This document shows, piece by piece, positions 33,456 to 48,715 of a DNA stretch of 58,509 bases. The position numbers and the translations under genes were made by a program. Below the pieces are notes generated by a model. It was not told the origin of the DNA, ran no database searches, and saw nothing but the letters and a program-made list of their open reading frames with translations. Origin of the DNA: a virus (lineage: Duplodnaviria > Caudoviricetes). The DNA lies in IMG/VR virus record IMGVR_UViG_3300005611_000027, positions 1 through 58,509 of that record; one strand, written 5' to 3'. Numbering within the stretch: position 1 is the stretch's first letter; each line of letters opens with the position of its first letter.

Positions 33456-33480
33456 GCCTCCATAAACAAAAGGAGGAGTT

Positions 33481-34195: not shown

Positions 34196-34392
34196 TCCCC
34201 GGCAAAATTTACATGCAGGACAACAACCGAATGTGGCGGTTGGTCCAACAGATAGATGGCGACCTTTGGTTCGCCCACACAGTCGTAGCAGACAGCTTGC
34301 ACATGAAGGGCGTCAGCACGCCCATCCATGTCATCAACGTCTCTCACTTGGAGGAAGCCCCGGATGTGGAAAATGCCTTGGCAGCAAGATGA
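34192..34392 (+). CDS. Hypothetical protein
   Basis: TTGA overlap, GGAG RBS. Confidence 0.5.
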   Translation: MIPGKIYMQDNNRMWRLVQQIDGDLWFAHTVVADSLHMKGVSTPIHVINVSHLEEAPDVENALAAR

Positions 34393-34540
34393 CCATCCCA
34401 GCGACGTTGTCTGTCGCATGTTCTACGTCTATCGCAAAAACACGATGGACATCGCAAAAACTTTGAACATCAGAGAGTCCGAGGTGTGGAACCACCTCAA
34501 CGAGGGAGGCCAGAAGTGGCTGAAGAAGCACAAAAAATAA
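34364..34540 (+). CDS. Small HTH-like protein
   Basis: MDIAKTLNIRESEVWNHL; GGAGG RBS. Confidence 0.55.
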   Translation: MWKMPWQQDDHPSDVVCRMFYVYRKNTMDIAKTLNIRESEVWNHLNEGGQKWLKKHKK

Positions 34541-34899
34541 TGTTCGTGAGCAGCAAAACCCGAGCGGGCGTGAACGGGCGGGACATATCCTGCCCGCACT
34601 GCCTGCACGGGTCGCACGTTTTCCACTTCGATTGGGACGCGCTGGTCTGCCAGTCATGCAAGAGACCTGTCGATAAGACAGATTGGATCGATGAGACGGG
34701 CATGCACAACCGCCAGCGCGTTTTAGAGCGCAATAAGAAGCCCCCGGCATACGTCCCGGGCAACATGGGTCACCAAGAGCGCACAGAGAGCCAGCGTCAA
34801 AAAGAGATGAAGATAGCCGAGGCTATGTGGCGAGAAAGCGGCGCGGTTTTCGATGACGCAAAAGTACATGATGCAAAGGACATCCTATGGAAAACGTAA
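34540..34899 (+). CDS. Zn-ribbon-containing hypothetical protein
   Basis: TRAG.NG..I.CPHC...VFHF.W.AL.CQSC. Confidence 0.7.
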   Translation: MFVSSKTRAGVNGRDISCPHCLHGSHVFHFDWDALVCQSCKRPVDKTDWIDETGMHNRQRVLERNKKPPAYVPGNMGHQERTESQRQKEMKIAEAMWRESGAVFDDAKVHDAKDILWKT

Positions 34900-35222
34900 A
34901 TCTTCTGAACCTCAACCCGAACGAGTGGACGCTCGTCGGACACCGCAGCTACAAGAGCGGCACCATCGAATGGGACGTGCACCGCGAGTTCGCCGAGCGC
35001 ATGTTCGGCAAGTCCCACTTAGATCACATGGAAAAGAAAGACATGTTCCGCAAGTATGTGAAGCTTGCCGAGCAGGATGCCATCTGGCTCTTCCACCGTC
35101 GCGTGCCCGGCACCTCGACGTTCGATCTGATCGTCCTGCCAAAGAACACAAACAAGCCCGCCAAGCCGAACTACGCCGGGCCCATCCGAGTGATCGTCTC
35201 GGAGGATGAAGATGCTGCGTGA
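34887..35222 (+). CDS. Hypothetical protein
   Basis: 111-aa ORF with AAGGA RBS. Confidence 0.6.
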   Translation: MENVNLLNLNPNEWTLVGHRSYKSGTIEWDVHREFAERMFGKSHLDHMEKKDMFRKYVKLAEQDAIWLFHRRVPGTSTFDLIVLPKNTNKPAKPNYAGPIRVIVSEDEDAA

Positions 35223-35273
35223 ATTTGGCGGCACACCACTATCCGCTTTACTACTTGAGATGTATATGGACGG

Positions 35274-35840
35274 CTATTCGGGTGTGTTGAGGGCGGCGCG
35301 TGTCTCCTGCCATTGGCGCAGGTGGGTGCGAAGATTTTTGGACCATCCTTCTGCGCCTTCGTGTGCGTCCAGATGGTTAATCAACTGTTCCGCCTCAGAA
35401 ACGTACTCCCGCAGCCTCACGTTCTCGGCCTCTGCTGCTTCGGCAATTTTATGAGCGCGCTGTTCGTCTTCTGCACATTGCCGCGCCGTCGCCTCCAACT
35501 CCGCCACCTGTGCTTTCAGTGTGGTGATGGCTTGGGCGTTGTCCCAAAATTCCCGCTCCGACTTGGGCACCAGTTCATCCCCCGCACCATAGGTGGAGAC
35601 AGGGGCGCGGTCGGGCATGGACAGGGCCTTGAACAGTGTGGCCGCGCTGCACCCCTTCCTGATCGTGGTCGCAGGGGGCAGGGTCACATCGCACGGCAAA
35701 AGGTAGGTTGACAGGAATGTGTCTATCGCTAGGTCGGCGATGATGCCCGCCTCCTGCCCGTCCACTCCGTTGCGCTCCCATATGGCTTCACAGGCGGCGA
35801 TCCGCGCATCATCCTCTACCGCTTCATCATGGTTGCTCAT
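35274..35840 (-). CDS. Hypothetical protein of leftward operon
   Basis: AAGGAG RBS; LPCDV.LPPAT.IRKG motif plus coiled coil. Confidence 0.7.
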   Translation of the reverse strand: MSNHDEAVEDDARIAACEAIWERNGVDGQEAGIIADLAIDTFLSTYLLPCDVTLPPATTIRKGCSAATLFKALSMPDRAPVSTYGAGDELVPKSEREFWDNAQAITTLKAQVAELEATARQCAEDEQRAHKIAEAAEAENVRLREYVSEAEQLINHLDAHEGAEGWSKNLRTHLRQWQETRAALNTPE

Positions 35841-36177
35841 GTGACGCTCCTTCGTTGGTTTCGGGACACAGGTTGCCAATCCCGATCACGGCAATGTCGA
35901 TGTCTAGCGTTCCGAATGTGTCAAGCACGGCGGCGCGGTGATCTGCCCAAAGGCGTCGGGCAGGCCGTACTGTGAAGGAGGCGACCTGTCCACTCATGCG
36001 TCGGTGCTTTCCGTATCCACAGGACAACGTGACCTTGCGCCCAACCCGGCATGTGTTGGCGTTCCAACGTGGTCCGTGCCGCCGCAGTTCCTCGGACTTG
36101 CTGCCGCTCTCGAACGCCTCGTACCACTCGGTTTTCAGCGGTATAAACAGGGGCTTTGCCCCGTCATCCTTGTTCAT
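35827..36177 (-). CDS. ASCH-domain-like protein
   Basis: LFIPLKTEWYEAFESGSKSEELR...W...V.LSCGY; AAGGAG RBS. Confidence 0.75.
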   Translation of the reverse strand: MNKDDGAKPLFIPLKTEWYEAFESGSKSEELRRHGPRWNANTCRVGRKVTLSCGYGKHRRMSGQVASFTVRPARRLWADHRAAVLDTFGTLDIDIAVIGIGNLCPETNEGASHEQP

Positions 36178-36547
36178 CTTCAATCTCCTTGGCTCGTAGT
36201 GCTGCGGCTGTGAGGGCGAGGGACATGCTGCTCCCAATGCCAAGCACGGTATCAAGTGTCCCGATCTTGCCTAAGTGCATATATGTACGGTGGCCTGAAG
36301 CGGAGAACTCGACACGAATGATACGCCACCCCTCCGGCACCAGTCCCATAGCCGCTGTAAGGTCATAGGGTCGGGTGGTGTAGGTGGGCGGACGCATTGC
36401 AACCGCGTCGTATTTAGGGCTTTCATAAGTTCCTAATTGTGCCTCATTCTCCCATGCGTCCACATCATCAAACGTGGTGAATATCTCTGCATCCAGTTCC
36501 CGCGACCCCGCTTCCACTTCTTCCAGTCGTTCTATGAGTGTGGTCAT
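36164..36547 (-). CDS. Hypothetical phage protein
   Basis: GSRELDAEI...YT...AA..LVPEGW...ALTAAALRA. Confidence 0.7.
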   Translation of the reverse strand: MTTLIERLEEVEAGSRELDAEIFTTFDDVDAWENEAQLGTYESPKYDAVAMRPPTYTTRPYDLTAAMGLVPEGWRIIRVEFSASGHRTYMHLGKIGTLDTVLGIGSSMSLALTAAALRAKEIEDEQG

Positions 36548-36762
36548 CAGAACGTCCTCTTTGGGGGCTGATTGGAGACGGATTGCATGTGGTCCTGCCA
36601 CTTTCGGCCTTCATGCTCTGCGAGGCGCTGGCGGTACCACTCGCTTGCCTTGGTGTGGCCACAGACTTCGCAGAGCAGGTCAACAGATGGGTCGTTCACT
36701 GGGTTCACAACCTTGGCAGAACCACATTTGCCGCAGGTTATGGGGTCAAGATTGATCTTCAT
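36547..36762 (-). CDS. Zn-ribbon protein
   Basis: CGKCGS...CEVCGH; coupled. Confidence 0.6.
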   Translation of the reverse strand: MKINLDPITCGKCGSAKVVNPVNDPSVDLLCEVCGHTKASEWYRQRLAEHEGRKWQDHMQSVSNQPPKRTF

Positions 36763-37181
36763 TCTCCACCTTCCTTTTCACTGTTGGGCGGGGTTGGTAG
36801 AGGCATCCAGTGGGAAGCATCATCCAGCATGGCGAAGGGTGCGCTGTCGTCTAAACAGACCCAACACCAGCCGTCACCATCATTAGGGTCTTCGAGGGTT
36901 GGGCTTGGTTCCCAATCCATCCACCACGCTTCCACAGCGCCTTGCGCCAGCAGGATCAAAACAGGATCGCCGTTGAACGGTGCCACTCTAGGCAACTCGA
37001 TACGTCCCGCGCTTTCTTCATACTCAATCGGTTGCCAATGCATTGCATCCCGCTGCCCACGCTCATAGGCTTCGGTGAGGGCGGTGGTGATAATTTCGCG
37101 CCGCTTCACTGTGTCAGTGACCCGTGCCACCGCGTTCTCAATCTCCCGCGCCACTTCTTCCAGTGTTGGTGTGTCAGTCAT
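36759..37181 (-). CDS. DUF551-like protein
   Basis: WQPIE...P..G..VL...SHWMPLP.PP. Confidence 0.75.
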   Translation of the reverse strand: MTDTPTLEEVAREIENAVARVTDTVKRREIITTALTEAYERGQRDAMHWQPIEYEESAGRIELPRVAPFNGDPVLILLAQGAVEAWWMDWEPSPTLEDPNDGDGWCWVCLDDSAPFAMLDDASHWMPLPTPPNSEKEGGE

Positions 37182-37464
37182 TGGTCTTCCTCTCTATCTC
37201 TGCAAGGATGGCGCGGGCGACGCGATAGGCAAAATGTCTGCCTCGGCTGTCTAGGTCTTCCCAAGTCGTGTCCGGCGCATCGGTGCGGTGTTCGGCTTCT
37301 TCGTCAACCATCGTGGCCGCGAAAAATGCCTTCGCCACCCGCTCCACAAGTTCTTCTCCTGAAGGCGGGGAAACGGCGAGCATGAGGGCGTATGCTCGTT
37401 CGGAGCAGAAGCACGGACCATCGTGCTCGCAGAAGCCGTCAGCCGCTCTGTCGTGTTTGAGCAT
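37174..37464 (-). CDS. Hypothetical protein, first gene of leftward operon
   Basis: ELVERVAKA...W......VARAILA; leader CACACAAGAGGGG. Confidence 0.65.
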   Translation of the reverse strand: MLKHDRAADGFCEHDGPCFCSERAYALMLAVSPPSGEELVERVAKAFFAATMVDEEAEHRTDAPDTTWEDLDSRGRHFAYRVARAILAEIERKTND

Positions 37465-37551
37465 GTGTGTCCCCTCTTGTGTGTGTGTTGCTATCAATGT
37501 TATATAGATGTGAAAGCACTTCCCGCAAGGGCAAACGTAAGGATTTTTTTT

Positions 37552-37749
37552 ATGAGCGAATACAAACCCTGCATGTTGCGTCTGCGTATTGAGACGCACC
37601 AGATGTTGCGCGATGCAGTTGGAAAAAGTTCACACCGCAGCATGTCTGCGCTGGCAGATGAGATACTGCATGTCGAGTTGGCGCGTCTATCGGAGACGCA
37701 AGAAACGCGAAGCGGCATTGACCGCATGATTAAAGCTGCCAACAAATGA
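37552..37749 (+). CDS. Ribbon-helix-helix regulator
   Basis: CMLRLRIETHQML.......RSMSALADEIL; divergent from leftward operon. Confidence 0.7.
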   Translation: MSEYKPCMLRLRIETHQMLRDAVGKSSHRSMSALADEILHVELARLSETQETRSGIDRMIKAANK

Positions 37750-38291
37750 AGATGCTGCGTAACACAGGCCGCGCACCACGGGACTTCTATCCCACGCCGC
37801 ATAGCATCATCGAGGTCATCCTCGACAAGCTAGGATGGGAACCCCAAACGATCTGGGAGCCCTGCGCCGGGGACGGACGGTTCGCCAAAGCCATCACCGC
37901 AGCAGGGCATGACTGCATCTCTCACGATATCGCCACGGGCCATGATTTCTTTTCGTGGGGAAAAGCAGAAGCTCCCGCCCTCATAACCAATCCGCCATTC
38001 AACAAGATCCGCCCCTTCATCGATCACGCCTTCGATATCGGTGTGCAACGGATGGTGCTCGTCACGAACGAGCGCCTCTGGGCATGCGGCAAGGGTTACC
38101 AGCAATGGAACAGACACCGGCCTTCACGGTTCACGAACCTGACGTGGCGAGAAGATTACCTCAACAAAGGAGGCGCGCCCGACCGAGCGCTGGCCGTGTG
38201 CATCTGGGACGAGCCCCACGCTCCGTCCTGCCGCTACGAAATCTGGGATAAGATTGCACCGGCGGAAAGTCACCCACCGGCAGCACCATGA
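37746..38291 (+). CDS. DNA amino-methyltransferase (N6-adenine type)
   Basis: DFYPTP, WEPCAGDG (motif I), ITNPPF (motif IV). Confidence 0.85.
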   Translation: MKMLRNTGRAPRDFYPTPHSIIEVILDKLGWEPQTIWEPCAGDGRFAKAITAAGHDCISHDIATGHDFFSWGKAEAPALITNPPFNKIRPFIDHAFDIGVQRMVLVTNERLWACGKGYQQWNRHRPSRFTNLTWREDYLNKGGAPDRALAVCIWDEPHAPSCRYEIWDKIAPAESHPPAAP

Positions 38292-38723
38292 GACCGTACT
38301 ACGAGAACCAGCGCGATCTGACCAACGAGAATTTGGTCGCCACGGCACTGAAAGAGAAGGGCCTCGACTTCGTGAAAATGCCCGTAAGTTATCGCCTTGA
38401 TTTCGCCATGTTACACAAAGGTAAGGTTCGCGGGTTTGCGGAGGTAAAGACGCGAAACAACCGACACGACAAATATCCCACGCTGATGATTTCGCTGGGA
38501 AAGGTCATGGCCGCACGCCAACTGTCAGAAGCGACAGGAACTCGGTCCATTTTATTTGTAAAATTTCTAGATGGACTGTACTGGTGCGATTTCGCATCGC
38601 CCTTCAACTTGGAAATAGGGGGCAGGAAAGACCGTCAGGACGACGCCGACATCGAACCTGTCGCGCATTTTGCAATATCGGCATTCCGAAGGTTTGGAAA
38701 GTCACCGGCGGAAAGTCACCCAC
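38257..38723 (+). repeat. 21-bp direct repeat flanking nuclease gene
   Basis: CACCGGCGGAAAGTCACCCAC at 38257-38277 and 38703-38723. Confidence 0.9.
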
Positions 38724-38740
38724 TGGAGAAAGACACATGA
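38288..38740 (+). CDS. PD-(D/E)xK nuclease
   Basis: LDFA.......FAEVKTR...YPTLMISLGK...R.DR.D..DIEP. Confidence 0.75.
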   Translation: MRPYYENQRDLTNENLVATALKEKGLDFVKMPVSYRLDFAMLHKGKVRGFAEVKTRNNRHDKYPTLMISLGKVMAARQLSEATGTRSILFVKFLDGLYWCDFASPFNLEIGGRKDRQDDADIEPVAHFAISAFRRFGKSPAESHPLEKDT

Positions 38741-38907
38741 ACACACCTTTAGATTACAAACCTTGGTACACGGCCCTCGTGCCTTGCGACTTCTGCGGGC
38801 AACTAACGCGTGGGCGAGTTTACGACGGTGCGAATCAAGTGGTCTGCGGTTCGTGCAACACGGTCCTCGTAGACGACGTTGAAAAAGCGAGACCCGATTG
38901 GGGTTAA
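38737..38907 (+). CDS. Small Zn-ribbon protein
   Basis: CDFCG...CGSC; GGAG RBS. Confidence 0.65.
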   Translation: MNTPLDYKPWYTALVPCDFCGQLTRGRVYDGANQVVCGSCNTVLVDDVEKARPDWG

Positions 38908-38914
38908 TTTTTAT

Positions 38915-38944
38915 TTGACATTCTCCCATAGCAGGCCATAAGAT
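38915..38944 (+). promoter_or_regulatory. Sigma70-like promoter
   Basis: TTGACA-18-TAAGAT containing TCCCATA. Confidence 0.55.
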
Positions 38945-38972
38945 GCCTGCGTCTATAACAGAGGAGTCAGAT

Positions 38973-39218
38973 ATGACCGAAACAAAAAGGAAGCGGGGAC
39001 GCCCCCGCAAAGATCGCATCACCGGCACGGTAACGTGGGCCCACAAGGAAGAGGTCAGCGTACCTGAGTTCCTGCGGCGGCTCGACAATCTACTGGGAAG
39101 CCCGATCAATCAGATGATGGATTGCGACGGCGACCTGTTCATGTCGGAATACCAGAAGCTGATACAGGCCCGCTACATGCTATCGAACGTGGTTCTAGAG
39201 ATAGAAGCCAAGGGATAA
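38973..39218 (+). CDS. Small protein with AT-hook
   Basis: KRKRGRPRK; GAGGAG RBS. Confidence 0.7.
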   Translation: MTETKRKRGRPRKDRITGTVTWAHKEEVSVPEFLRRLDNLLGSPINQMMDCDGDLFMSEYQKLIQARYMLSNVVLEIEAKG

Positions 39219-39221
39219 ACG

Positions 39222-39254
39222 AAAGGGGCCGTGAGTAACTCACGGCCCCTTTTA
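39222..39254. terminator. Bidirectional intrinsic terminator
   Basis: AAAGGGGCCGTGAG-TAA-CTCACGGCCCCTTT between convergent ORFs. Confidence 0.85.
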
Positions 39255-39356
39255 CTTCGCCTTGATGTCCCAGCTAAACGTCAGGCCATCAAACGAAACA
39301 CCATCCTTAGAAAACGTGATGGTGCCGAATAGCGTTTTCAGCACGAGCGGTTCCAT
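39252..39356 (-). CDS. 34-aa peptide MEPLVLKTLFGTITFSKDGVSFDGLTFSWDIKAK
   Basis: G-rich RBS, ends at terminator. Confidence 0.4.
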   Translation of the reverse strand: MEPLVLKTLFGTITFSKDGVSFDGLTFSWDIKAK

Positions 39357-39486
39357 AAGCCACTACCCCCTTCTTAACGAAAGACCACAAACCAGCAAGC
39401 TTGTGCCGGTAACCGGCAGCGATGCCGACGGCGATGCCGCGGTCCGAGATAAAAACATCAAAAGCGATGCCTGTGAGAAATGTCAT
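39307..39486 (-). CDS. 59-aa hypothetical protein
   Basis: AAGGAG RBS and TTGCAC-17-TATATC upstream on the minus strand. Confidence 0.55.
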   Translation of the reverse strand: MTFLTGIAFDVFISDRGIAVGIAAGYRHKLAGLWSFVKKGVVAYGTARAENAIRHHHVF

Positions 39487-39526
39487 GTCAGTAATCTCCT
39501 TCCCCGATGATATAAGCCCTTCTATT

Positions 39527-39712
39527 GTGCAGTGCAACATAAATCCCCATGACCCCAGAACATGGCAGACCCAAGCCAGCCTCAGACGCGAGCTGCAACG
39601 CGCTGCCGACGACGCAGCATGGACGGGCGACATGGCACGAGCCGCGGCCCTCGATACACGGCTCACGGCCCTCGAGCCAGAGCTCGATCACGAGCTCGTC
39701 GTGCCGTTTTAA
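39527..39712 (+). CDS. Small hypothetical protein (start uncertain)
   Basis: DPRTW...DDAAW.GD...ELVVPF. Confidence 0.4.
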   Translation: MQCNINPHDPRTWQTQASLRRELQRAADDAAWTGDMARAAALDTRLTALEPELDHELVVPF

Positions 39713-39768
39713 AATCGTTCTAATCTGGGGTCTGGATAAGTCCTTGAAATATAAGAGATAATTAGTTG

Positions 39769-39797
39769 TTGACTGAATCGATAGTATGGGATATGAT
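39769..39797 (+). promoter_or_regulatory. Strong sigma70-like early promoter
   Basis: TTGACT-17-TATGAT with AT-rich upstream element. Confidence 0.8.
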
Positions 39798-39932
39798 AGG
39801 ACATAATAAGAAGAGGCGACAAAAGCGCCGCGCTGTTGGACATCGTAAATCGGAACTACTCAGATGAGCCGTGGGCCTCAACCGGCAGCGATGCCGTATG
39901 ACGCTTTTCGCGTTTCACACAAGGAGTCACCT

Positions 39933-40664
39933 ATGGCAAAACTGAAACTGAGAGCCATCAAAGATGGCAAAGACAAAAACCGGTATTGCGGGCCGTCCGT
40001 GATATCGGCACTGACCGACCTGACGACCGGGGAAGCTGCAAGGCTGATACGGAAGCAGAACGGTCGCCAAGCAATCCGGGGCTCGTACACTCACGAGGTT
40101 CTGGACGCACTTCGATCTTGCAACATTCAGGCTCGCCGATGGGAAAAGCCCGGCGTTCGATTAAATCGGAAGACCGGGCCCACGCTTGCCGGATGGCTGA
40201 AGATGTCGAAGGAAGATCGGACCCCCGGTCGCGTCTTCCTCATCGTCGCCGGATGGCACTGGCAACTCGTCAGCGGTCGGCGCTACACCTGCGGTCGGAT
40301 ACGAGATATCGTATCGATCAAAGACAAGCGGGTGAAGCGGAGGGCACGGGTCGCAGAGGTCTACGAGCTGACCTCGGACAACGTGACCAAGCCGGACATC
40401 GCTGTGTCAAAGCCCAAGTCAAAGTCCAACCCCTGTTACTACCGGGTCAGGAAACTTACCCAGCAGTACCCGGAGTTCGATCTGACCTACGAAAAAGATG
40501 ACTTGGGCTACTACGTTGCAATGAGCGAAGAGCTCGAACAGCACGCTTTGGACACTCAACACCCCCTATGCGACGAGCATTATTGCTACGATATGGGGGA
40601 AGTCGCACAGCGTATGGAGGAAATGGTGGCGTTCGCAAAGGAGCACTACCCAAAGATAAAGTAA
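39933..40664 (+). CDS. Putative papain-fold (C39-like) cysteine peptidase-domain protein
   Basis: YCGPSVISAL...RGSY..EV..AL...FLIVAGWHWQLV; CACAAGGAGTCA leader. Confidence 0.5.
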   Translation: MAKLKLRAIKDGKDKNRYCGPSVISALTDLTTGEAARLIRKQNGRQAIRGSYTHEVLDALRSCNIQARRWEKPGVRLNRKTGPTLAGWLKMSKEDRTPGRVFLIVAGWHWQLVSGRRYTCGRIRDIVSIKDKRVKRRARVAEVYELTSDNVTKPDIAVSKPKSKSNPCYYRVRKLTQQYPEFDLTYEKDDLGYYVAMSEELEQHALDTQHPLCDEHYCYDMGEVAQRMEEMVAFAKEHYPKIK

Positions 40665-40744
40665 CATGAGCCACGGCCCACGGTTCTTCTGAGTAGTCCC
40701 GAAAACGGGAAAGATAAGCAGGATCAAGGGGTTAGGCCCAAAAC

Positions 40745-40995
40745 AGGGCTTCACGGGCCGGGTTACAAAAAACGGAAACGGTTATATATAGCTCCCAGAT
40801 TATTTTTTTTATTTTTTCATAAACTACCCGTAACCAGTGTAACCGTGTAACTAGTATAGGTAACCCTATATAATATATAGATTCTTAGGGTACATATTAG
40901 CAGTTACACCTTGAATCCAATAATGTAACCATATGTAGAACCCAAATCGGGCTTAATGGCATCTGAGCCGGAAAAAAATATTTTTCAAATTCCTG
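40745..40995. other. AT-rich non-coding region with GTAAC/GTTAC iterons (origin or pac candidate)
   Basis: About 7 GTAAC/GTTAC copies, CTATATAATATATAG near-palindrome, T-tracts, directly before terS. Confidence 0.55.
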
Positions 40996-41053
40996 ACTAT
41001 ATACACCGGGACGGGCTTTGGTATAGGATGTACGCCAATTAACTGCCCACAGG

Positions 41054-41662
41054 ATGCCGATGAAAAACAGACCCCACAAGGCCAAGAGCCGAGAGCTTAT
41101 TGACCGCCCCCTGACCCGGAAGCAGGAACTGTTCGTGAAGGAGCTTGTTTCCAAGGACGGCCAGATCACAATGCGTGAGGCGGCCATCAATGCTGGGTAC
41201 AGCGCAGGCGCTGCCCACACCCGAGCTTACGAGCTCACCAACCCCCACATCTCCCCGCATGTATGCAAGGCGATCCGTGAATACCGGGCCGAGCTCGATG
41301 AGAAGTACGGCGTCAGCTATCGCCGCCACCTCCGTGACCTTCAGACCATCCGGGATATGGCTTTGCAGAACGGCGCTTACAGCGCTGCGGTACAAGCCGA
41401 GTATCGGCGCGGTCAGGCGCAGGGAGATATCTACGTTAGTAAGTCCGAGATCAGACACGGCAGCATTGACTCGATGTCGAAGGACGAAGTCATGCGAGCC
41501 TTGGAGGAGATTAAGCAAAGCTATGCCCCGATCACCATCGATGTTACCCCGGAGTCCGAACCAAATGCCTCGAACCGCTCTAAAGCGAGAGAGCGGCTTT
41601 TATCGTCAGGTGAAGGAGGCGATGAAGAGGTACTCGACGAAACTGATCCCGACGAGGATTGA
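41054..41662 (+). CDS. terS: Terminase small subunit
   Basis: LTRKQELFVKE...EAAINAGYS...A...A.EL HTH. Confidence 0.85.
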   Translation: MPMKNRPHKAKSRELIDRPLTRKQELFVKELVSKDGQITMREAAINAGYSAGAAHTRAYELTNPHISPHVCKAIREYRAELDEKYGVSYRRHLRDLQTIRDMALQNGAYSAAVQAEYRRGQAQGDIYVSKSEIRHGSIDSMSKDEVMRALEEIKQSYAPITIDVTPESEPNASNRSKARERLLSSGEGGDEEVLDETDPDED

Positions 41663-42005
41663 AACATGGGCGATGCCCGGCGTTCCCGACCTCATGGTTT
41701 GTGACACCGAGGGCCGCTTTCATCTGATCGAGCTCAAAGCCACCACGAACCATGCGGTCGAGCTCCGCCCGCATCAGGTGTCCTTCCTGACCAAGCATCA
41801 GCATGCGTCCTGTTGGATACTGGTGAAGCGGCAGCGGGTGATGACTGACCCCGCTCAAGTCTATCTGTATCCTGCCCGGCAGGCCGTCGATCTCCGCATG
41901 GAAGGTCTGGACAAGGTCAACCCGGCAGCGCTCGAGGAAGAGCCCGTAAACTGGTCTAACATTTTCCGGTTGATCTTTGGGCCGGGGTCCGATAAAAGCG
42001 CATAG
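41565..42005 (+). CDS. VRR-NUC / Holliday-junction-resolvase-like nuclease
   Basis: RIETWAMPGVPDL.......LIELK......LRPHQV.F. Confidence 0.8.
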   Translation: MPRTALKRESGFYRQVKEAMKRYSTKLIPTRIETWAMPGVPDLMVCDTEGRFHLIELKATTNHAVELRPHQVSFLTKHQHASCWILVKRQRVMTDPAQVYLYPARQAVDLRMEGLDKVNPAALEEEPVNWSNIFRLIFGPGSDKSA

Positions 42006-42029
42006 TCCAACTAACCAAGGAGTCAGGAC

Positions 42030-42245
42030 ATGAACTATCGAATCTATTTTACTTTCCCGGCAGGAGACCGGGCCACCAACGCGCAGGTGTTTGCAACTCG
42101 TGAGGAAGCGTTGAACAGCGCCGCCGACCGGTTCGCGGCATGGACCATGCCGACAGGTTATGAGGTCGAGGAGACCGAAGACCCGGTCACCTATCAGTGG
42201 AACCGAGATGAGGGGGACGTTCCTATCGACCGGGCCGCGGCATGA
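42030..42245 (+). CDS. Small cassette protein
   Basis: NAQVFATREEA..SA...F..W; CAAGGAGTCA leader. Confidence 0.75.
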   Translation: MNYRIYFTFPAGDRATNAQVFATREEALNSAADRFAAWTMPTGYEVEETEDPVTYQWNRDEGDVPIDRAAA

Positions 42246-42364
42246 GAGAACCCCTTCCCCTTTCCGTTGTTAAGCGGCTGGACCGTGTCGTCACCATACT
42301 GTTCGCCACCTTCGCTTTTGTGTCGTACCTGTACCTGTACGATCTTACCTTCAACTTGTTCTAA
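42242..42364 (+). CDS. 40-aa single-TM peptide
   Basis: MREPLPLSVVKRLDRVVTILFATFAFVSYLYLYDLTFNLF; ATGA coupling. Confidence 0.5.
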   Translation: MREPLPLSVVKRLDRVVTILFATFAFVSYLYLYDLTFNLF

Positions 42365-42375
42365 GGAGAGAACGC

Positions 42376-42480
42376 ATGTTTCTATTTACGTTGATCGGTC
42401 GCTTGCTCTATGGCTCCGATTATGATGATCTAGCGCGCCGAGCTAACAGTCGCCCGGTCCGCCGTCGCAGACGCCGATAA
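42376..42480 (+). CDS. 34-aa peptide with hydrophobic N-terminus and poly-Arg tail
   Basis: MFLFTLIGRLLYGSDYDDLARRANSRPVRRRRRR; AAGGAG RBS. Confidence 0.65.
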   Translation: MFLFTLIGRLLYGSDYDDLARRANSRPVRRRRRR

Positions 42481-42505
42481 CAACCCGTTTCCTTGTGTGA
42501 GAACT

Positions 42506-42535
42506 AGCGCCGCCTCGAGCGGCGCTTTTTTTATT
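42506..42535 (+). terminator. Intrinsic terminator
   Basis: AGCGCCGC-CTCGA-GCGGCGCT-TTTTTT. Confidence 0.85.
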
Positions 42536-42619
42536 TAGAAGAGGGGTTGTGCGGCATGCGTTTATGTGCGAGAAGATGGGTGCGGCACTTCCGCCGCATG
42601 CCAACAAGGAGACAAACCA

Positions 42620-43744
42620 ATGGCACATGAACTTGATTTTTCCGCAGACGGTCGCGTTGCAATGGCTTACCTGAACGGCGATCAGCCGCCGTGGCACGCT
42701 AACGAAACCCGCCCGCAGATTGTGGACCCCGGCGCGGACATCGATGTCTGGGCCGAGGCCGCTGGCCTGAATTACCAGATCGAGGTCGCCCCGAACTACA
42801 AGGCGGACGGCACAGTAATTGAGGACTCTTTTCACATTGCCCGGACTGACACCGGGGCGGTGGTCGGACCGTACATCGCCGGACAATGGCGTCCTGTTCA
42901 GAACGCCGAGGCGCTCGAGCTTGCGGACAATATCCGCCGCCGTCACGGCTATGAGATTGTGACCGCCGGAGCGTTGTTTGGCGGCTCTAAAATATGGGTG
43001 CAGCTTGAGGCGGACGCCGACGCCGTGCTTCCGGGCGAGGACCGGATCACGTCACGGCCCCTGTTCAGTCTGTCGCACACCGGGCGCGAGGCCAACTTGT
43101 TTACCGCCGTTAACACCCGCGTGGTTTGCAATAACACCCTGACCGCCGCGCTGGCCGAGGGCACCGATTGCGAGCGCCACGATCACCGGGTGGCGTTCGA
43201 CCCCGACGCGATTGAAACCGCGCTTGGCCTTAACGCGGACAAGTTCGGCGTGTTCACCGATATCGCCCGCCGCATGGCGTCCCGTGCTATGACAGACGCC
43301 GAGGCGCTCGAGTATTTCCGGGGCGTGTTTGGCGGCAAGGAAAAGATCGATGAGTCCGGTCGCGTCCTGCATAGCGTGGCGGTCCGCCGGGCAATGGCGT
43401 TCCATCGCGGGCAGGACTTTGTGCCGGTTGGCAAGGATAACGCGGCGGACGTTGCGCTGTATGTCTCCGACCGGCTCGATCAAATCGCCCGGGGCGCGGC
43501 GGTTGATCTGCCCGCCGACGTTACGAACGATCCGGCCCCCGGTATCAACCCCGGGCACGATATGGAGTCGGCACGCGGCACCTTGTGGGGCGCGTTCAAC
43601 ACCGTGACTTGGCTGGCCGATCAGCGCCCGACAAAAAACCGGGGCGCGGATCATGGCATTGCGTCGAATCTTTTCGGCGACGGCACGGGCGGCAAGCTTA
43701 AAGCTAAGGCGCACACTAAGGCGCTCGAGCTTTTGGCCGCCTAA
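42620..43744 (+). CDS. DUF932-family protein
   Basis: WRPVQNAEA, TAGALFGG.KIW, LSHTG, RVVCNNTL, GTLWGAFN.VT...D. Confidence 0.88.
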   Translation: MAHELDFSADGRVAMAYLNGDQPPWHANETRPQIVDPGADIDVWAEAAGLNYQIEVAPNYKADGTVIEDSFHIARTDTGAVVGPYIAGQWRPVQNAEALELADNIRRRHGYEIVTAGALFGGSKIWVQLEADADAVLPGEDRITSRPLFSLSHTGREANLFTAVNTRVVCNNTLTAALAEGTDCERHDHRVAFDPDAIETALGLNADKFGVFTDIARRMASRAMTDAEALEYFRGVFGGKEKIDESGRVLHSVAVRRAMAFHRGQDFVPVGKDNAADVALYVSDRLDQIARGAAVDLPADVTNDPAPGINPGHDMESARGTLWGAFNTVTWLADQRPTKNRGADHGIASNLFGDGTGGKLKAKAHTKALELLAA

Positions 43745-43767
43745 CCCGCCGCCTCATAACTAATAGA

Positions 43768-43800
43768 ACCGCCCGGCCCCGCGCCGGGCGTTTTTTTATT
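43768..43800 (+). terminator. Cassette terminator (shared hairpin family)
   Basis: CGCCCGG-CCCCGCG-CCGGGCG-TTTTTTT. Confidence 0.88.
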
Positions 43801-43860
43801 GTGCAAAGATAAGCGGGCGCGGTATAAGACAAATCCCACAACACACAAGGAGTCAAAACA

Positions 43861-44532
43861 ATGGCGAATTATTCCCTAACCCGTAAATCCTCGAATAAGA
43901 AAACCGGCCCGATTCCCGTTAGCACGACAAGCGCGGACACTTGCCCGGCGGCTTGCCCTTTTAAGGGCGCGGGATGTTATGCGGACGGTTATCCCTTAAA
44001 GGGGCGCTGGGATGAAGTGACCCGGGGCGAACGCGGCGGGACGCTCGAGCAATTTTGCGCGGACGTTGCGGCGCTGCCCGCCGGGCAATTTTGGCGGCAC
44101 AATCAGGCGGGCGACTTGCCGGGCGACGGCGAGCGCATCGACTCCGCCGGGCTCGCGGCTATCGTCGCGGCGAACAATGGAAAGCGCGGGTTTACGTTCA
44201 CCCACTACAGCCCAGCCCGCAAACGCAACGCCGCCGCAATTCGCAAAGCCAACGCCGCCGGGTTTACCGTTAACCTAAGCGCAAACAATCTCGAGCACGC
44301 CGACGAACTAGCGGCGCTGGACATTGGCCCGGTCGCGGTTGTATTGCCCGCCGCGTTTGACGCTCGCAAAACCACCACCCCGGCAGGCCGCCCGGTCGCG
44401 CAATGCCCGGCAACGTATCGGGAAACAACGTGCGCCGATTGCCAGCTATGCGCCCAACAATCGCGCCGCGTTATTGTTGGTTTTCCCGCTCATGGCGTTC
44501 ACAAGCGCAAGGCGGACGCCGTCGCCGCCTAA
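43861..44532 (+). CDS. Cys-rich putative Fe-S / radical-SAM-like phage protein
   Basis: SSNKKTG...CPAACPF...GCYA, WRHNQAGD, CPA.....C.DC.LC, GFPAHG. Confidence 0.65.
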   Translation: MANYSLTRKSSNKKTGPIPVSTTSADTCPAACPFKGAGCYADGYPLKGRWDEVTRGERGGTLEQFCADVAALPAGQFWRHNQAGDLPGDGERIDSAGLAAIVAANNGKRGFTFTHYSPARKRNAAAIRKANAAGFTVNLSANNLEHADELAALDIGPVAVVLPAAFDARKTTTPAGRPVAQCPATYRETTCADCQLCAQQSRRVIVGFPAHGVHKRKADAVAA

Positions 44533-44555
44533 CTAATCCCCGCCTTGCACCTCGA

Positions 44556-44588
44556 GCCGCCCGGCCCCGCGCCGGGCGGTTTTCGTTT
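44556..44588 (+). terminator. Cassette terminator (shared hairpin family)
   Basis: GCCGCCCGG-CCCCGCG-CCGGGCGGT-TTTCGTTT. Confidence 0.8.
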
Positions 44589-44829
44589 GCGCGTTGCGAT
44601 AGTGAATCAAGGCGCGGCCCGCCGCCCGCCCAGCGCTGAAAGCTACCGTGCGCCGCGTACCGTGGCCCGTGGCGCGTGTTTCGCGGCCCGCCCGGCCCGG
44701 ACCCCGGCCCCCGGCCCAGCGCCCGCCGTGCGCGATCCTAGCGCCTGCCGCTTTGCGCCTTGCATTATGCGCCGCCATATGCGAAAAAATGCGCGCGGCA
44801 TATCCCGCCGCGAAACAAGGAGTCCTGAC

Positions 44830-45042
44830 ATGTGTGAAAATCTAGTTAGTTACTACGTCCCCAGCGGTTTCGATTATCGCGAGGTGCAGACCCGGTGTGG
44901 ATCAACCGACATCCATGGCGAGGAAGCGCTTTGTGACGATTGCGCCGCCGATCCTCGAGCCCGGGCCGAGCATGAGCGCCGCGCCCGACTCAGCGCCGAG
45001 GACAATGCGACGGCCCGCGCCGCTGGATGGGGGGAATACTAA
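44830..45042 (+). CDS. Small Cys-containing cassette protein
   Basis: MCEN.V.YYVP.G.DYRE....CGST..HG....CDDC; ACAAGGAGTC leader. Confidence 0.75.
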   Translation: MCENLVSYYVPSGFDYREVQTRCGSTDIHGEEALCDDCAADPRARAEHERRARLSAEDNATARAAGWGEY

Positions 45043-45239
45043 TGGTCCGGACAATCGACCTAACCCCTAGCTGGGAAACCGCCGTGCAAGTTTATTGCGC
45101 CGTGCTCGAGAATCCGAACGCGTCCCCTGAGGGGCGTGCCACGGCCCGCGATGAAATATACCGCTTGGCCCGGGCGTTTGATCAAATGAACGCCGAACCG
45201 GACGAACCCGAGATTGAATACCTCGAGGCCGTGGACTAG
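45042..45239 (+). CDS. Small cassette protein
   Basis: TIDLTPSW......Y..VLEN......A.DE..RLA...D. Confidence 0.75.
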   Translation: MVRTIDLTPSWETAVQVYCAVLENPNASPEGRATARDEIYRLARAFDQMNAEPDEPEIEYLEAVD

Positions 45240-45262
45240 CGCCCGCCGCCCCCGAACATCGA

Positions 45263-45290
45263 GCCCCGGCCCAGCGCCGGGGTTTTTTGT
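45263..45290 (+). terminator. Cassette terminator (shared hairpin family)
   Basis: GCCCCGG-CCCAGCG-CCGGGGT-TTTTT. Confidence 0.85.
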
Positions 45291-45363
45291 TGTGTCGAGT
45301 CCCGCCCTATGGGATAAATCCCGTGCGGCTCAATCCCGGGCCGCCACACAAGGAGTCAAAAAC

Positions 45364-45735
45364 ATGAGTGAAGCATTCATCCCCCCAGCCCCCGCGACCC
45401 CCGAACCGGAGATCACCGTTCAGGGATTCGGCACGGGCACCCTCGCCGAGATCGAGCACCACATCGCCCAGCTAAAGGATGAGCTGGAGAGCGCCCGCCT
45501 CGAGCTCGAGCTGGCCCGGAAGCGCGAGATCGAGCGCCAGCCCCTAGTCGAGGCGATCCAGCACATCGTGGACCAGAGCCTTGATCGCTGGGTTCTGAGC
45601 GAAGGCCCGCTCGAGGTGCTGGGGGCCATCATCGAGTCATCCGTCGAGGATCAGCTATCATCGTCTATTGACTCCCATATCGAGGCGGCGCTCGAGAATG
45701 CCACGGTTGATGTCGAGGCCTATATCCGGCTGTAA
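45364..45735 (+). CDS. Acidic coiled-coil cassette protein
   Basis: 123 aa, E-rich; CACAAGGAGTCA leader. Confidence 0.75.
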   Translation: MSEAFIPPAPATPEPEITVQGFGTGTLAEIEHHIAQLKDELESARLELELARKREIERQPLVEAIQHIVDQSLDRWVLSEGPLEVLGAIIESSVEDQLSSSIDSHIEAALENATVDVEAYIRL

Positions 45736-45756
45736 CGCCCGCGACCTTTACCAGCG

Positions 45757-45787
45757 ACCCCCGGCCCAGCGCCGGGGGTTTTTTTAT
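45757..45787 (+). terminator. Cassette terminator (shared hairpin family)
   Basis: ACCCCCGG-CCCAGCG-CCGGGGGT-TTTTTT. Confidence 0.88.
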
Positions 45788-45799
45788 GCCCGGCACCCG

Positions 45800-45955
45800 G
45801 CCCGCCGTCCTCGAGCTCCCGGCATCGGATCCCGCCCTCGAGCTCCCCGGGGAATCGGATCCCGCCCTCGAGCTCCCGGCATCGGATCCCGCCCTCGAGC
45901 TCCTCGCCCTCGAGCTCCCCGGGACATCGAGCTCCCCGGGGGATCGGATCCCGGT
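45800..45955. repeat. GC-rich tandem repeat of overlapping palindromes (27-30 bp unit)
   Basis: CCCGCCCTCGAGCTCCC(C)GG..ATCGGAT x3 plus degenerate copies. Confidence 0.9.
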
Positions 45956-46136
45956 GCACGGCCCGGGTCCCCCGGCTATCGGGTCAAAACCCCGGGAATC
46001 CGCGCTTTCCAGCCCGATCCGCGCCGCGCCGCCCCCGCGCCGGGGGGACGAGGGCAAGGGCCATGTTTTTCACAAACAATCACCAAATTTTTGATATGAC
46101 TAGCCGAGTTGGCATTTTGATGTTAAATGTCCCATA

Positions 46137-46152
46137 TGTTTCACGTGAAACA
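46137..46152. promoter_or_regulatory. Perfect parS consensus palindrome
   Basis: TGTTTCACGTGAAACA, intergenic, 18 bp before terL ATG. Confidence 0.85.
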
Positions 46153-46170
46153 ATGATTTAGGGTCCCCCG

Positions 46171-47631
46171 ATGGATGTTCTGGCTAACCCGGTCCTAGAA
46201 GAAAAAGCTTTGAAGCTTCAGCTTCGTCTCGCGCAGCTCGAGAAGAACGAAGCCTGCCAAAATAATTTTCTTACCTTTGTAAAGACGGTCTGGCCCGAGT
46301 TCATTGCAGGACGGCACCACAAGATTATTGCGGAAAAGCTGGAGCGTGTAGCGAGCGGCGAGCTTAAACGCCTGATTATCAATATGGCTCCTCGTCACAC
46401 CAAGTCAGAGTTTGCGTCGTACCTGTTCCCCGCATGGATGATGGGGAAGAACCCCGGCATGAAAATCATTCAGGCTACGCACACCACGGAACTTGCGGTC
46501 AACTTTGGTCGCAAAACAAAGAACCTTCTTGAAGACGAGCGATATCAAGAAATCTTCCCTGAAGTGAAGCTTGCTGCGGACAGTAAGGCATCCGGTCGTT
46601 GGGACACGAACAAGGGTGGTATGTACTACGCTGTCGGCGTGGGCTCGAACTTGGCGGGCCGTGGTGGTGATCTGGTCATTATTGACGATCCGCACTCGGA
46701 ACAGACGGCTATGTCCAATTCCGGCTTTGATGACGCTTGGGAGTGGTACACGGGCGGTCCTCGACAGCGTTTGCAGCCGGGCGGCAGCATCGTTTTGGTC
46801 CAGACCCGGTGGTCTGAAAAGGATATGACGGGTCAGCTTGTCCGTTCGATGGCCAAGGATCCCCTCGCCGATCAGTGGGAAGTGGTCGAATTACCGGCTT
46901 TGTTTGACGACGACACCCCTTGTTGGCCGGAGTTCTGGAGTATTGAGGATCTGACCGCGGTCCGCGCATCTATTCCTCCGAGCAAGTGGAATGCTCAGTA
47001 CCAGCAGAACCCGACCGGCGACGATAACGCTATTATTGCTAGGGAATGGTGGCGTAGGTGGGAACGAGATACGGTCCCTCAGTTGCAGTATGTCATTCAG
47101 AGCTACGATACGGCGTTTTCCAAGCGGGAAACTTCGGACTTTTCTGCGATTACGACGTGGGGTGTGTTCTATCCTGAAGAAGGGGGCCCCCCGAACCTTA
47201 TCCTGCTGGACAGCAAGAAGGGCCGGTGGGACTTTCCGGAGCTTAAATCGCAGGCTTTTGACATGTACCACTTCTGGGAGCCAGATACGGTCATCGTGGA
47301 AGCCAAGGCTTCTGGTCTGCCCTTGACACACGAACTACGGAACACGGGCATTCCTGTTGTGAATTTCACGCCCAGTAAGGGCAATGACAAGGTATCTCGT
47401 GTGCATGCGGTATCGCCTCTGTTTGAGGCAGGGATGGTTTGGGCCCCCGACGAAGTATTTGCTGACGAGATGATTGAAGAGGTTGCGGCCTTTCCGAACG
47501 GAGAGCATGACGACCTTGTCGATAGCATGACGCAGGCTTTAATGAGGTATCGTCAGGGCAACTTCATTCAACTGCCAACAGATGACTGGGAAGAACAGAT
47601 GGGTTCTGCTAAGATAAGGGCTTATTACTAA
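46171..47631 (+). CDS. terL: Terminase large subunit
   Basis: INMAPRHTKS, IIDDPH, QTRW, QSYDTA, EAKASG, HDDLVDS. Confidence 0.95.
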   Translation: MDVLANPVLEEKALKLQLRLAQLEKNEACQNNFLTFVKTVWPEFIAGRHHKIIAEKLERVASGELKRLIINMAPRHTKSEFASYLFPAWMMGKNPGMKIIQATHTTELAVNFGRKTKNLLEDERYQEIFPEVKLAADSKASGRWDTNKGGMYYAVGVGSNLAGRGGDLVIIDDPHSEQTAMSNSGFDDAWEWYTGGPRQRLQPGGSIVLVQTRWSEKDMTGQLVRSMAKDPLADQWEVVELPALFDDDTPCWPEFWSIEDLTAVRASIPPSKWNAQYQQNPTGDDNAIIAREWWRRWERDTVPQLQYVIQSYDTAFSKRETSDFSAITTWGVFYPEEGGPPNLILLDSKKGRWDFPELKSQAFDMYHFWEPDTVIVEAKASGLPLTHELRNTGIPVVNFTPSKGNDKVSRVHAVSPLFEAGMVWAPDEVFADEMIEEVAAFPNGEHDDLVDSMTQALMRYRQGNFIQLPTDDWEEQMGSAKIRAYY

Positions 47632-47643
47632 GGATTTTGTCTG

Positions 47644-48618
47644 ATGGCGATGAACCGTCGCGCAGCGGTAGCGAGTAAACTACTGAAACAAGCCGGGTAT
47701 ACCGGTGATTTGATGCGCTTGGCGGAGTCCCTGCCCCCGGAGACGCTTGTACAGTTCGACAAGCTATTAAATCACAAGGAACCTTCTGTGGGGCCCGGTA
47801 TGGATAGCGGCATTGTCGTCGCTTACAAATCCGGCGAGGTCGTGCAGGACAGGCCCATGCAGGGCAACTTCTCGGAAGAGGGTATTGCGGTTTATGAAGA
47901 CGGCGGTGCCGTCGAACCGCGGTCCGCGGACCCTGAAGCAGAAATCTTGGCTATTCTCGATCTTCTGGATGAAGAGAACCGGAAGCCGGAGCGCGAGAGG
48001 GACCCCGAAAGGATCGATGAGCTTTATTCACGGCTCACGGAACTTCAGTCTATGTCGGCCCCGCCTGTCGCATTTGAGGTCTCGGACGACGTTTACCTTC
48101 GCCCCCAGTTTGAGGCCAGCTTTGGGATTGGTGAAAGCAACCGTCGCGTGCCGTTTTTTGAGGACACGGTCAAGATCCGTGACCGGAACATGGGTGGCAT
48201 CGCTCGTTTAGGCGCGGAGATTGGTTTTCCCGGATTTTCTGGAAACGACCGGCTTAGTGGCGGCGTGACGGCTACGTATGATCGCACCAAACGCCTGTTG
48301 CCCGACGAATTTATTGCCTTTGGGGCCCCGTCTGATATCCGTTTCGGTCCCCGGGGTGTTGTCCCCCGCGGTTATGATGTAAGCTACTCCTCTGGTCCGC
48401 ACACATTCTCAGGAAATGTGACGCCACGACAAGAGGGAGTCAGTCGTGATGCACCGGGAGGTAGATCCGTACTTGACCTTGGCTATACGTATTCGACGCC
48501 GGAAGCGTCGTACTCTCTTCAGGCGACACCTTTCGGTCGTAGTGTGGTCACTGACCAGAAAACCGGCGATACGGAAATGGACCGGTCGATTATGGCGCGT
48601 TACACAACGCGTTTCTGA
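47644..48618 (+). CDS. Hypothetical protein with beta-barrel-like C-terminal domain
   Basis: Amphipathic beta strands, terminal ...ARYTTRF; YEDGGAV motif; no signal peptide. Confidence 0.55.
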   Translation: MAMNRRAAVASKLLKQAGYTGDLMRLAESLPPETLVQFDKLLNHKEPSVGPGMDSGIVVAYKSGEVVQDRPMQGNFSEEGIAVYEDGGAVEPRSADPEAEILAILDLLDEENRKPERERDPERIDELYSRLTELQSMSAPPVAFEVSDDVYLRPQFEASFGIGESNRRVPFFEDTVKIRDRNMGGIARLGAEIGFPGFSGNDRLSGGVTATYDRTKRLLPDEFIAFGAPSDIRFGPRGVVPRGYDVSYSSGPHTFSGNVTPRQEGVSRDAPGGRSVLDLGYTYSTPEASYSLQATPFGRSVVTDQKTGDTEMDRSIMARYTTRF

Positions 48619-48715
48619 TGAATATAGTTCCGTGATCCGTGGACTGAGGAGAGTGTTACTTAAATAGGGGCCCCCGGCAGCGCGCAGCGGCCCACGGCTC
48701 TGGATGGAGCCAAAG

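Follow-up and report, generated by a model that had tools for sequence, protein, structure and literature searches.

Why would a phage genome that encodes no recognizable partition protein carry a perfect bacterial parS site directly in front of its packaging genes? The question is raised by the IMG/VR record IMGVR_UViG_3300005611_000027, a podovirus-like genome of 58,509 bp (the window, by which we mean this whole stretch), in which the 16-bp palindrome TGTTTCACGTGAAACA occupies positions 46137-46152. An earlier reading of the DNA alone (the original prediction) had described it as a perfect chromosomal parS, and the sequence and the open reading frame (ORF) coordinates confirm that it is intergenic and ends 18 nt before the ATG of the large terminase gene, terL. 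All 16 positions match TGTTNCACGTGAAACA, the published consensus for the chromosomal site of ParB/Spo0J, in which positions 5 and 12 are N (PMC7022226). Table 1 of that source lists the exact form seen here for H. neptunium, B. subtilis, C. glutamicum, and others. The half-site GTTTCAC also carries G at position 1 and A at position 6, the bases that set parS apart from NBS, the site of Noc (PMC7383237). The chance expectation for an exact 16-mer palindrome in a genome of this length is ~1.4e-5 (58509/4^16). A search that allowed up to 3 mismatches, a loose pattern for which shuffled sequences give 0.28 sites, brought up no further copy in the window, and GTTYCAC half-sites are not enriched (11 observed vs 15.1 ± 3.7 expected). 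Judged by its sequence, the 16-mer is a genuine parS and not a chance occurrence.

No phage-encoded partner for the site was found. Six-frame hidden Markov model searches, whose controls were positive in 10-14 of 14 reference genomes, gave no match in the window to ParB_N, HTH_ParB, or KorB, nor to AAA_31 (ParA-type ATPase) or Phage_integrase (tyrosine integrase). A Pfam scan of the 74 window ORFs returned none of these families either, in agreement with the original prediction that no par or integrase gene is recognizable. ParB_N was likewise not found in five relatives (G001-G005). The window has no parA and parB adjoining the site as in a self-encoded ParABS cassette, and no KorB or ParB domain that would go with a KorB/OB-type operator, for which overlap with a promoter is plausible by eye. 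It does have the phi29-type combination of a virulent-type phage without its own ParB or ParA but with a host-consensus parS.

The original prediction had named absence of the site from close relatives as a ground against it, and such an absence is not what we found. In a TerL-based scan of IMG/VR, from which the best 80 of at least 600 stretches were kept (TerL 76-91% identical), loci were scored as parS-positive when a match with at most 2 mismatches lay within 1.5 kb upstream of terL, and as parS-negative only when at least 300 bp of upstream sequence was present. On this basis 48 loci were positive, 25 negative, and 7 too short, so that 48 of the 73 evaluable relatives carry the site, 39 of them with at least one exact copy. 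Within 400 bp upstream of terL, the best matches fall into two groups, at 0-2 or 4-7 mismatches, with no decayed 3-mismatch intermediates (L049 at 4, the other site-less loci at 5-7). Exact sites upstream of terL occur in more distant relatives as well (L092, L109, and L151, with 75%, 66%, and 57% TerL identity, respectively). Searches of whole records placed the site at the terL locus only, in 1-2 copies, in five of five parS-positive relatives; among five negatives, four had no site anywhere, one of these being judged 96% complete, and the fifth had one parS site ~6.7 kb from terL. The trait requires 12-14 parsimony changes on a TerL tree of 110 rows built with FastTree, at least 9 of them forced by well-supported branches, a count that recombination between terL and its upstream region could inflate. 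It is also clustered on the tree, with 0 of 500 shuffles as low.

Conservation is concentrated on the site itself. When 49 distinct contexts of 76 nt are compared, the fraction of the majority base falls from 0.97 inside the site to 0.46 in each of the two 30-nt flanks; the higher value is in part built in, because only sites with ≤2 mismatches were selected. Exact TGTTTCACGTGAAACA accounts for 35 contexts and TGTTCCACGTGGAACA for nine, and five different one- or two-base variants occur once each. The only recurrent variant, TGTTCCACGTGGAACA (the C/G form), differs at positions 5 and 12, the N positions of the consensus; it stands alone in 4 loci and in tandem with the T/A form in nine, all of one subclade, with 23-24 bp from start to start. 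Pseudomonas has the C/G form as its natural parS, and Myxococcus nearly so, whereas the T/A form is used by Hyphomonas, Bacillus, Corynebacterium, and others (PMC7022226, Table 1). Two loci lie at the edge of the counts above: L080, scored as too short, ends within a C/G-type site, and L048, scored as negative, may break off short of the position at which its closest relatives have the site.

The site also comes and goes as a unit. In an alignment of five parS-positive and four parS-negative upstream regions (A1), the boxes TC(C/G)CATAT and TAGGG(T/G)CCCC are kept in all nine, and the positives have an extra 16-17 nt exactly between them, a clean indel. In the L013 group, parS instead lies 3 nt after a TGATAT box, before the TTGTTAACTG box and ahead of a TTGTTA-17 nt-CATATT element, with the palindrome TTGCCTAAttaTTAGGCAA after it. 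In the L055 and window groups it follows the TTGTTAACTG box. The parS-negative cousin L030 has TGATATgag joined straight to TTGTTAACT, and G005-type relatives carry the same module ahead of terS-HNH-terL instead of terL alone. These varied placements in the L013, window, and G005 types suggest that parS is a discrete movable unit, always at the head of the packaging operon. Conservation as such an element argues, as far as sequence comparison goes, for a function and for a host-encoded binder.

Two further observations concern the same stretch. Directly after parS, a second palindrome, TTGCCTAA(tta)TTAGGCAA, is present in L013, L021-L027, L033, L042, L050, L081, and others, with two copies in L022 and L079; it may be bound by another protein or fold as a hairpin. 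In the window, a 32-codon ORF (46063-46161) can be traced by eye from a conserved CCATG box through parS to a TAG at 46159. The equivalent frame in L003 crosses parS in another register, and parS is therefore unlikely to be constrained by coding.

As to which protein reads the site, no window gene is present in all parS-positive genomes yet absent from the parS-negative genomes G003 and G006, and none of those within ±3 kb accompanies the site from locus to locus. The small terminase, TerS, is 74-81% identical to that of the window in parS-positive genomes and 65-71% in parS-negative ones (G002-G006). Because TerS is conserved alike with and without parS, it is unlikely to be the reader, and an essential role of the site as pac is unlikely too. 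The 16/16 match, with variation that mostly takes the form of natural parS variants, points to a reader with a ParB-type helix-turn-helix (HTH) domain. As the phage has neither a detectable ParB nor a co-varying gene, host ParB is the most economical binder, and we consider that the host's chromosomal ParB probably binds here. ParABS systems occur in most bacteria outside the Enterobacteriaceae and Pasteurellaceae (PMC7022226).

The borrowing of host ParB put forward in the original prediction thus gains from the conservation of the site as a discrete element, although the prediction overlooked the precedent of phi29 (PMC2731898). The alphaproteobacterial host that it assumed is not established, as contigs of the clade have been binned into metagenome-assembled genomes (MAGs) of several phyla. 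Thirty loci sit in MAGs of many phyla, one bin being archaeal, which we read as mis-binning. A match between the parS variants of phage and bin was considered as a guide to the host and set aside: in five MAGs with 1-4 canonical sites each, phage and chromosomal copies were inseparable and no match emerged. The cultured HTVC023P-type phages HTVC023P and HTVC027P infect Pelagibacter, which forms no spores.

The position of the site suggests a regulatory setting (Table 1). The upstream gene, and with it the accessory operon, ends at 45735, and an AT-rich stretch (46060-46160) starts abruptly after the repeats and the GGGTCCCCCGGCTATCGGGTCA box. Since the terminator precedes the conserved boxes, the terL transcript must start within this stretch. 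The CATGTTTTTCACAAACAAT region, kept in parS-positive and parS-negative relatives, may be a distal promoter-like element, and TTAAAT with TC(C/G)CATAT the putative -10/start-site region of a proximal terL promoter. Alternatively, the proximal promoter may be read as TTGGCA (46109-46114), 17-18 nt, and CCATAT/CATATG; the relatives' equivalents are TTAACT/ATAACT, 16-17 nt, TAWAAT, then C(G/C)CATA. Counted from the proximal start, parS would in our reading fall at about -10 to +20; counted from the distal start, it would fall at about +33 to +48. Rfam gave four sub-threshold matches in 45200-46400, none near parS, and no family above its gathering score.

Other features of this region recur elsewhere. 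With or without parS, the clade has a non-coding module ahead of terL, GGGTCCC..ATCGGGTCA, CATGTTTyTCACAAAyAAT, TC(C/G)CATAT, TAGGG(T/G)CCCC, and ATG, which may be a promoter, a packaging signal, or an origin. The TAGGGTCCCC box has a second copy in the window at 48665-48674. The terminator-like hairpin CCCCGGCCCAGCGCCGGGG with its T-run is present in two copies (45257-45288 and 45752-45783; 91% identical, 495 bp apart) that bracket ORF 45214-45735, and relatives have other short repeats, of the GGTCCGTGG and CCGCGG types, in the same gap.

Table 1. Features of the terminase region, in window coordinates
Feature	Positions	Strand	Basis or remark
terS (small terminase)	41054..41662	+	Terminase_2; phrog_51; 4.5 kb upstream of terL
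Terminator-like hairpin and T-run, closing the accessory operon	45756..45790 (hairpin 45756-45780)	+	hairpin scan
G+C-rich short direct repeats CTCGAGCTCCC.., GGATCCCGCC..	45805..45953	+	non-coding, before promoter region
Conserved single-copy box GGGTCCCCCGGCTATCGGGTCA	45965..45986	+	~185 nt before terL; variants in most relatives
Conserved box CATGTTTTTCACAAACAAT, unique in window	46062..46097	+	TTCACA (46069-46074), 17 nt, TGATAT (46092-46097)
TTAAAT, then conserved TC(C/G)CATAT box adjoining parS (TCCCATAT in window)	46123..46137	+	by-eye reading
parS palindrome, 16 bp, chromosomal type	46137..46152	.	exact match to TGTTTCACGTGAAACA; only copy in genome
Conserved box TAGGGTCCCC, likely ribosome-binding context	46159..46168	+	before terL ATG; parS-positive and parS-negative relatives
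terL (large terminase), first gene of packaging/structural operon	46171..47631	+	phrog_38, E 7.3e-110; Terminase_6C

We propose that parS would serve as the loading site of a ParB-family HTH protein, most likely host ParB. A bound ParB dimer and spreading cytidine triphosphate (CTP)-dependent clamps would mark the phage chromosome at the head of the packaging/structural operon. By analogy with phi29, the phage DNA could then hitch-hike on host ParABS and SMC, being positioned and inherited while lysis is deferred. Bound ParB, within a few bases of the predicted transcription start, may also hinder RNA polymerase and damp the late operon, as suggested by a site that overlaps or adjoins the predicted terL start. 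ParB binding, promoter overlap, and both consequences are what we infer from the locus. If host ParB does bind, we would tentatively put hitch-hiking and inheritance first; a brake on the late operon or a titration timer is possible, and SMC loading or help with packaging, like titration of ParB that disturbs the host, improbable. These odds are rough, and the consequences can co-occur.

Other explanations would account for part of these data. The site could be an operator at the terL promoter for an unrecognized phage regulator or a non-ParB host factor, its parS identity arising by convergence or mimicry. Such an operator would suit a site that adjoins a conserved box resembling a -10/start region where the late operon begins, many ORFs without a Pfam or PHROG match, and the second palindrome TTGCCTAAttaTTAGGCAA after the site in one subgroup. 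Drift together with the regulator would be expected, however, and instead 35 of 49 contexts have the exact bacterial consensus and 9 the other natural variant. No gene is common to all parS-positive genomes and missing from the negatives, no ParB-type or other HTH domain was detected in the window, and its 31-46 kb accessory region is absent from the parS-positive G002, G004, and G005, sharing nothing with them beyond the exceptions given below. We therefore regard this explanation as unlikely. A hairpin in the RNA or single-stranded DNA of the terL leader, acting on mRNA stability or translation and matching parS incidentally, is very improbable. The palindrome can form a 6-bp stem with a 4-nt loop (-6.2 kcal/mol for 46130-46160), and the recurrent variant changes positions 5 and 12 jointly, which would preserve a base pair. 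Yet this is the sole co-varying pair, and the other 14 positions are near-invariant beside flanks at 0.46, which indicates base-specific readout. Moreover, the singleton variants TGTTCCACGTGAAACA and TGTTTCACGTGAAACT disrupt pairing, the stem leaves out the TAGGGTCCCC/ATG region, Rfam has no family here above its gathering score, and an exact 16-bp consensus match would be expected only 1.4e-5 times per genome.

Little credence can be given to a pac/cos packaging signal recognized by TerS, TerL, or the HNH protein. If essential, such a signal should be kept by every phage that shares the terminase, yet 25 of 73 relatives lack the site while TerS (65-81%) and TerL (81-85%) are similarly identical in genomes with and without it. 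The site does stand immediately upstream of terL, or of terS-HNH-terL in G005-type relatives, and phi29 and the Clostridium phage phiCP7R also have a site beside their packaging ATPase genes. Contigs of many relatives stop 100-600 bp upstream of terL, but the junction of conserved terL with hypervariable accessory DNA explains such breaks just as well. Hardest to credit is a neutral remnant, such as a scrap of host DNA gained by recombination and passively inherited, even though the phages can do without the site and its distribution over the TerL tree is patchy (12-14 parsimony changes). The site stays exact in lineages with flanks down to 46% majority identity, has at least two placements with respect to the conserved promoter boxes, is tandemly duplicated in one subclade, and leaves no 3-mismatch decay intermediates among the best matches in the 400 bp upstream. 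In these sequence comparisons, purifying selection on parS can already be seen, contrary to a neutral remnant.

Several points weigh against the borrowing of host ParB and against its action on the terL promoter. The site is dispensable, being missing from 25 of the 73 evaluable relatives, and none lies within 2.5 kb of terL in the four nearest complete public genomes (HTVC023P, HTVC027P, 023Pt_psg01, and DSL-LC04). With 1-2 sites, these genomes have far fewer than phi29 or phiCP7R, and it is not obvious why a strictly lytic phage should need segregation. Many window ORFs are of unknown function and may include small or unrecognizable DNA-binding proteins. The MAGs that hold clade contigs are labeled Verrucomicrobiota, Rhodobacteraceae, Maricaulis, Halieaceae, and others, and are not reliable evidence of a host. 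At the promoter, a scan for consensus sigma-70 elements flagged nothing at the site, the assignment having been made by eye, and the conserved boxes CATGTTTTTCACAAACAAT and GGGTCCCCCGGCTATCGGGTCA are single-copy in the genome. The gap before terL is also one of the few long intergenic stretches, so that the placement of parS could reflect available space instead of regulation.

The genome is otherwise complete-looking (CheckV 100%), without terminal repeats and with a G+C content of ~55%. Scans of the 74 ORFs against Pfam and PHROG revealed a podovirus-like gene set, with SU10-type adaptors, portal, and capsid; a family A DNA polymerase, an AEP primase, and UvrD and SNF2 helicases; and a GroES-like Cpn10, a gene transfer agent-type holin, and the small terminase. 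No tRNAs were found in a tRNA search. The nearest public genomes by TerL, at 54-62% identity, are the Pelagibacter phages HTVC027P and HTVC023P, 023Pt_psg01, and DSL-LC04; no cultured parS-positive relative was found in the clade, and a megablast of 45000-48000 against 50,697 phage records found no near-identical isolate. HTVC023P-type genomes measure 58.8 ± 2.5 kb, share a core of terminase, polymerase, helicases, and GroES among others, and are among the most widespread marine podoviruses (PMC9599517). The window matches them in size and core genes, and its G+C content exceeds their 42 ± 6% (PMC9599517). The 4.5-kb gap between terS and terL is filled with accessory genes, whereas terS-HNH-terL are contiguous in G005-type relatives. 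This belongs to a 15-kb accessory stretch (31200-46000) that has no detectable protein in common with five related genomes, the exceptions being terS/HNH, weak DUF7227 matches, and, in G002 only, DUF932, a cell-wall hydrolase (31877-32308), and a partial match to 45214-45735. In the structural module, a gene with an HlyC-family (RTX-toxin acyltransferase) domain (21502-21957) lies directly 3' of a 1525-residue ORF without a family match (16928-21505); its homologues were found in G002 and G004 and not in G003, and the pair may point to an acylated virion or ejection protein.

Related DNA is held by metagenome assemblies from estuary and salt marsh, in which DNA contigs bridge the parS site; the best-matching sequencing run has 0.30 of the sampled words, the runs being assembled contigs. 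Contigs of some relatives connect 46080 straight to 46137 through 20 other letters, the L013-type layout. In an RNA library one contig begins at 46246, within terL, and 45840-46241 has no cover in that run (contigs, not raw reads). As assembled contigs give neither a transcript start nor a genome end, we draw no inference on either from the runs.

Orphan sites are not confined to this clade. The exact 16-mer is present in at least 137 IMG/VR stretches, and among the matches listed ~10 belong to this TerL clade. In a whole-record search of 50 exact-parS records (G011-G060, from L082-L137), 49 had no ParB_N at E ≤ 1e-3, and the remaining one had a sub-threshold match of 23.2 bits. This suggests that orphan host-type parS is common in viral contigs and largely unstudied. 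Several of the 50 records are small (12-18 kb) and near-complete with 2-5 sites, some with inverted terminal repeats. Among isolates, phiCP7R (L274, NC_017980.1), a lytic, phi29-like phage of 18.4 kb without an annotated ParB, has seven parS sites with at most 1 mismatch, four of them exact (5096, 5122, 8130, 8155, 10233, 12108, and 12133). Three pairs, 25-26 bp apart, lie at gene boundaries, one of them where the packaging ATPase gene begins. In the paper on this genome parS goes unmentioned (PMC3362512); by analogy, the sites probably have the same role as the Spo0J sites of phi29. Gordonia phage PatrickStar (L273, KU998252.1) has two exact intergenic parS (locus 6560 and 7525) near its right end, at least the first of them inside a longer palindrome. 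Beyond the phi29 family, our search, with subscription journals outside its coverage, found no paper on natural host-type parS in ParB-less or marine phages, and most matches concerned engineered parS/ParB-green fluorescent protein (GFP) tags.

A wider and more doubtful proposal is that orphan parS reflects an overlooked, widespread borrowing of ParB by unrelated ParB-less lytic phages, coupled in the marine clade to a ParB-titration switch. The families concerned would be HTVC023P-type podoviruses, Clostridium Guelinviridae, Gordonia Orchidvirus, and probably gut Microviridae. At low copy number or in an idle host, ParB would keep the packaging operon shut and the genome would be both positioned and inherited along with the host origin; after replication, parS copies would outnumber the ParB supply and the late operon would open. 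If our reading is true, a docking site for host ParB that is conserved yet optional, at the switch point from early/accessory to packaging genes, would provide a concrete, testable handle on the still-open question of how marine phages that look lytic survive in hosts that grow slowly or starve. The titration switch would then offer a molecular explanation of deferred lysis, pseudolysogeny, and carrier states among slow-growing bacteria of the ocean. The phi29-Spo0J paradigm would also extend beyond spore-formers. In practice, a phage-borne parS would interfere with ParB-GFP/parS labeling and with host chromosome segregation during infection.

Among known systems, phi29 offers the most direct comparison. 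Its parS sites were reportedly described by Meijer et al. in 2005 as being used by host Spo0J (ParB) for spore entrapment (cited in PMC2731898 and PMC9437464). Our scan of NC_011048.1 found four 1-mismatch sites, TGTTTCACGTGGAACA, and one 3-mismatch site, in agreement with the published five, and there is evidence that Spo0J helps move the phi29 genome into the prespore (PMC2731898). Like phi29, the window is a virulent, ParB-less podovirus with host-type parS, and exploitation of the host partition protein, documented for phi29, is here proposed by analogy. The two differ in that the five phi29 sites are dispersed and mostly within genes, whereas several dispersed sites were not found in the window or in five relatives, where the one site (1-2 in relatives) invariably occupies the regulatory gap ahead of the packaging operon. 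Moreover, phi29 is a protein-primed 19-kb phage of a spore-former whose benefit is spore entry, and ours is a 58-kb HTVC023P-type podovirus of marine and estuarine waters.

The site equally recalls the chromosomal ParABS centromere, in which ParB-CTP clamps bind parS close to oriC and with which it shares an identical 16-bp sequence, the clade variants being the bacterial T/A and C/G forms (PMC7022226). It differs in lacking an origin context and a parAB operon beside it, and in that the replicon is viral. A centromere-like site on a phage genome is also found in P1, N15, and mycobacteriophages, but these encode their own ParA and ParB, neither of which was found in the window. Their cassettes (parABS in P1 and mycobacteriophages, sopABC in N15) have a private parS. 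A further likeness is to promoter-proximal operators, ParB-family sites at promoters where binding or spreading lowers transcription. Examples are KorB at OB on plasmid RK2 and the silencing around P1 parS and F sopC. In P. aeruginosa, where parB is non-essential, as it is in P. putida, ParB at the promoter-proximal parS3 and parS4 represses PA0011 and PA0013 (PMC7022226). In P. aeruginosa, RK2, P1, and F, the ParB or KorB comes from the same replicon, whereas here it would be borrowed from the host, and repression is suggested by position. Finally, lytic phages co-opt host regulators for a proposed 'lytic deferment', through Spo0A boxes in the case of phi29 and CtrA boxes in phages of alphaproteobacteria (PMC9437464). 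Our locus resembles these in placing the site of a host cell-cycle or developmental protein in a phage promoter region, where it is proposed to postpone lysis depending on the state of the host, and differs in that ParB is a CTP-dependent clamp rather than a classical transcription factor and that the case made here is sequence-based. The principle would be that of phi29, and the novelty lies in the phage lineage, the likely biology of the host, the number of copies, and the single regulatory placement.

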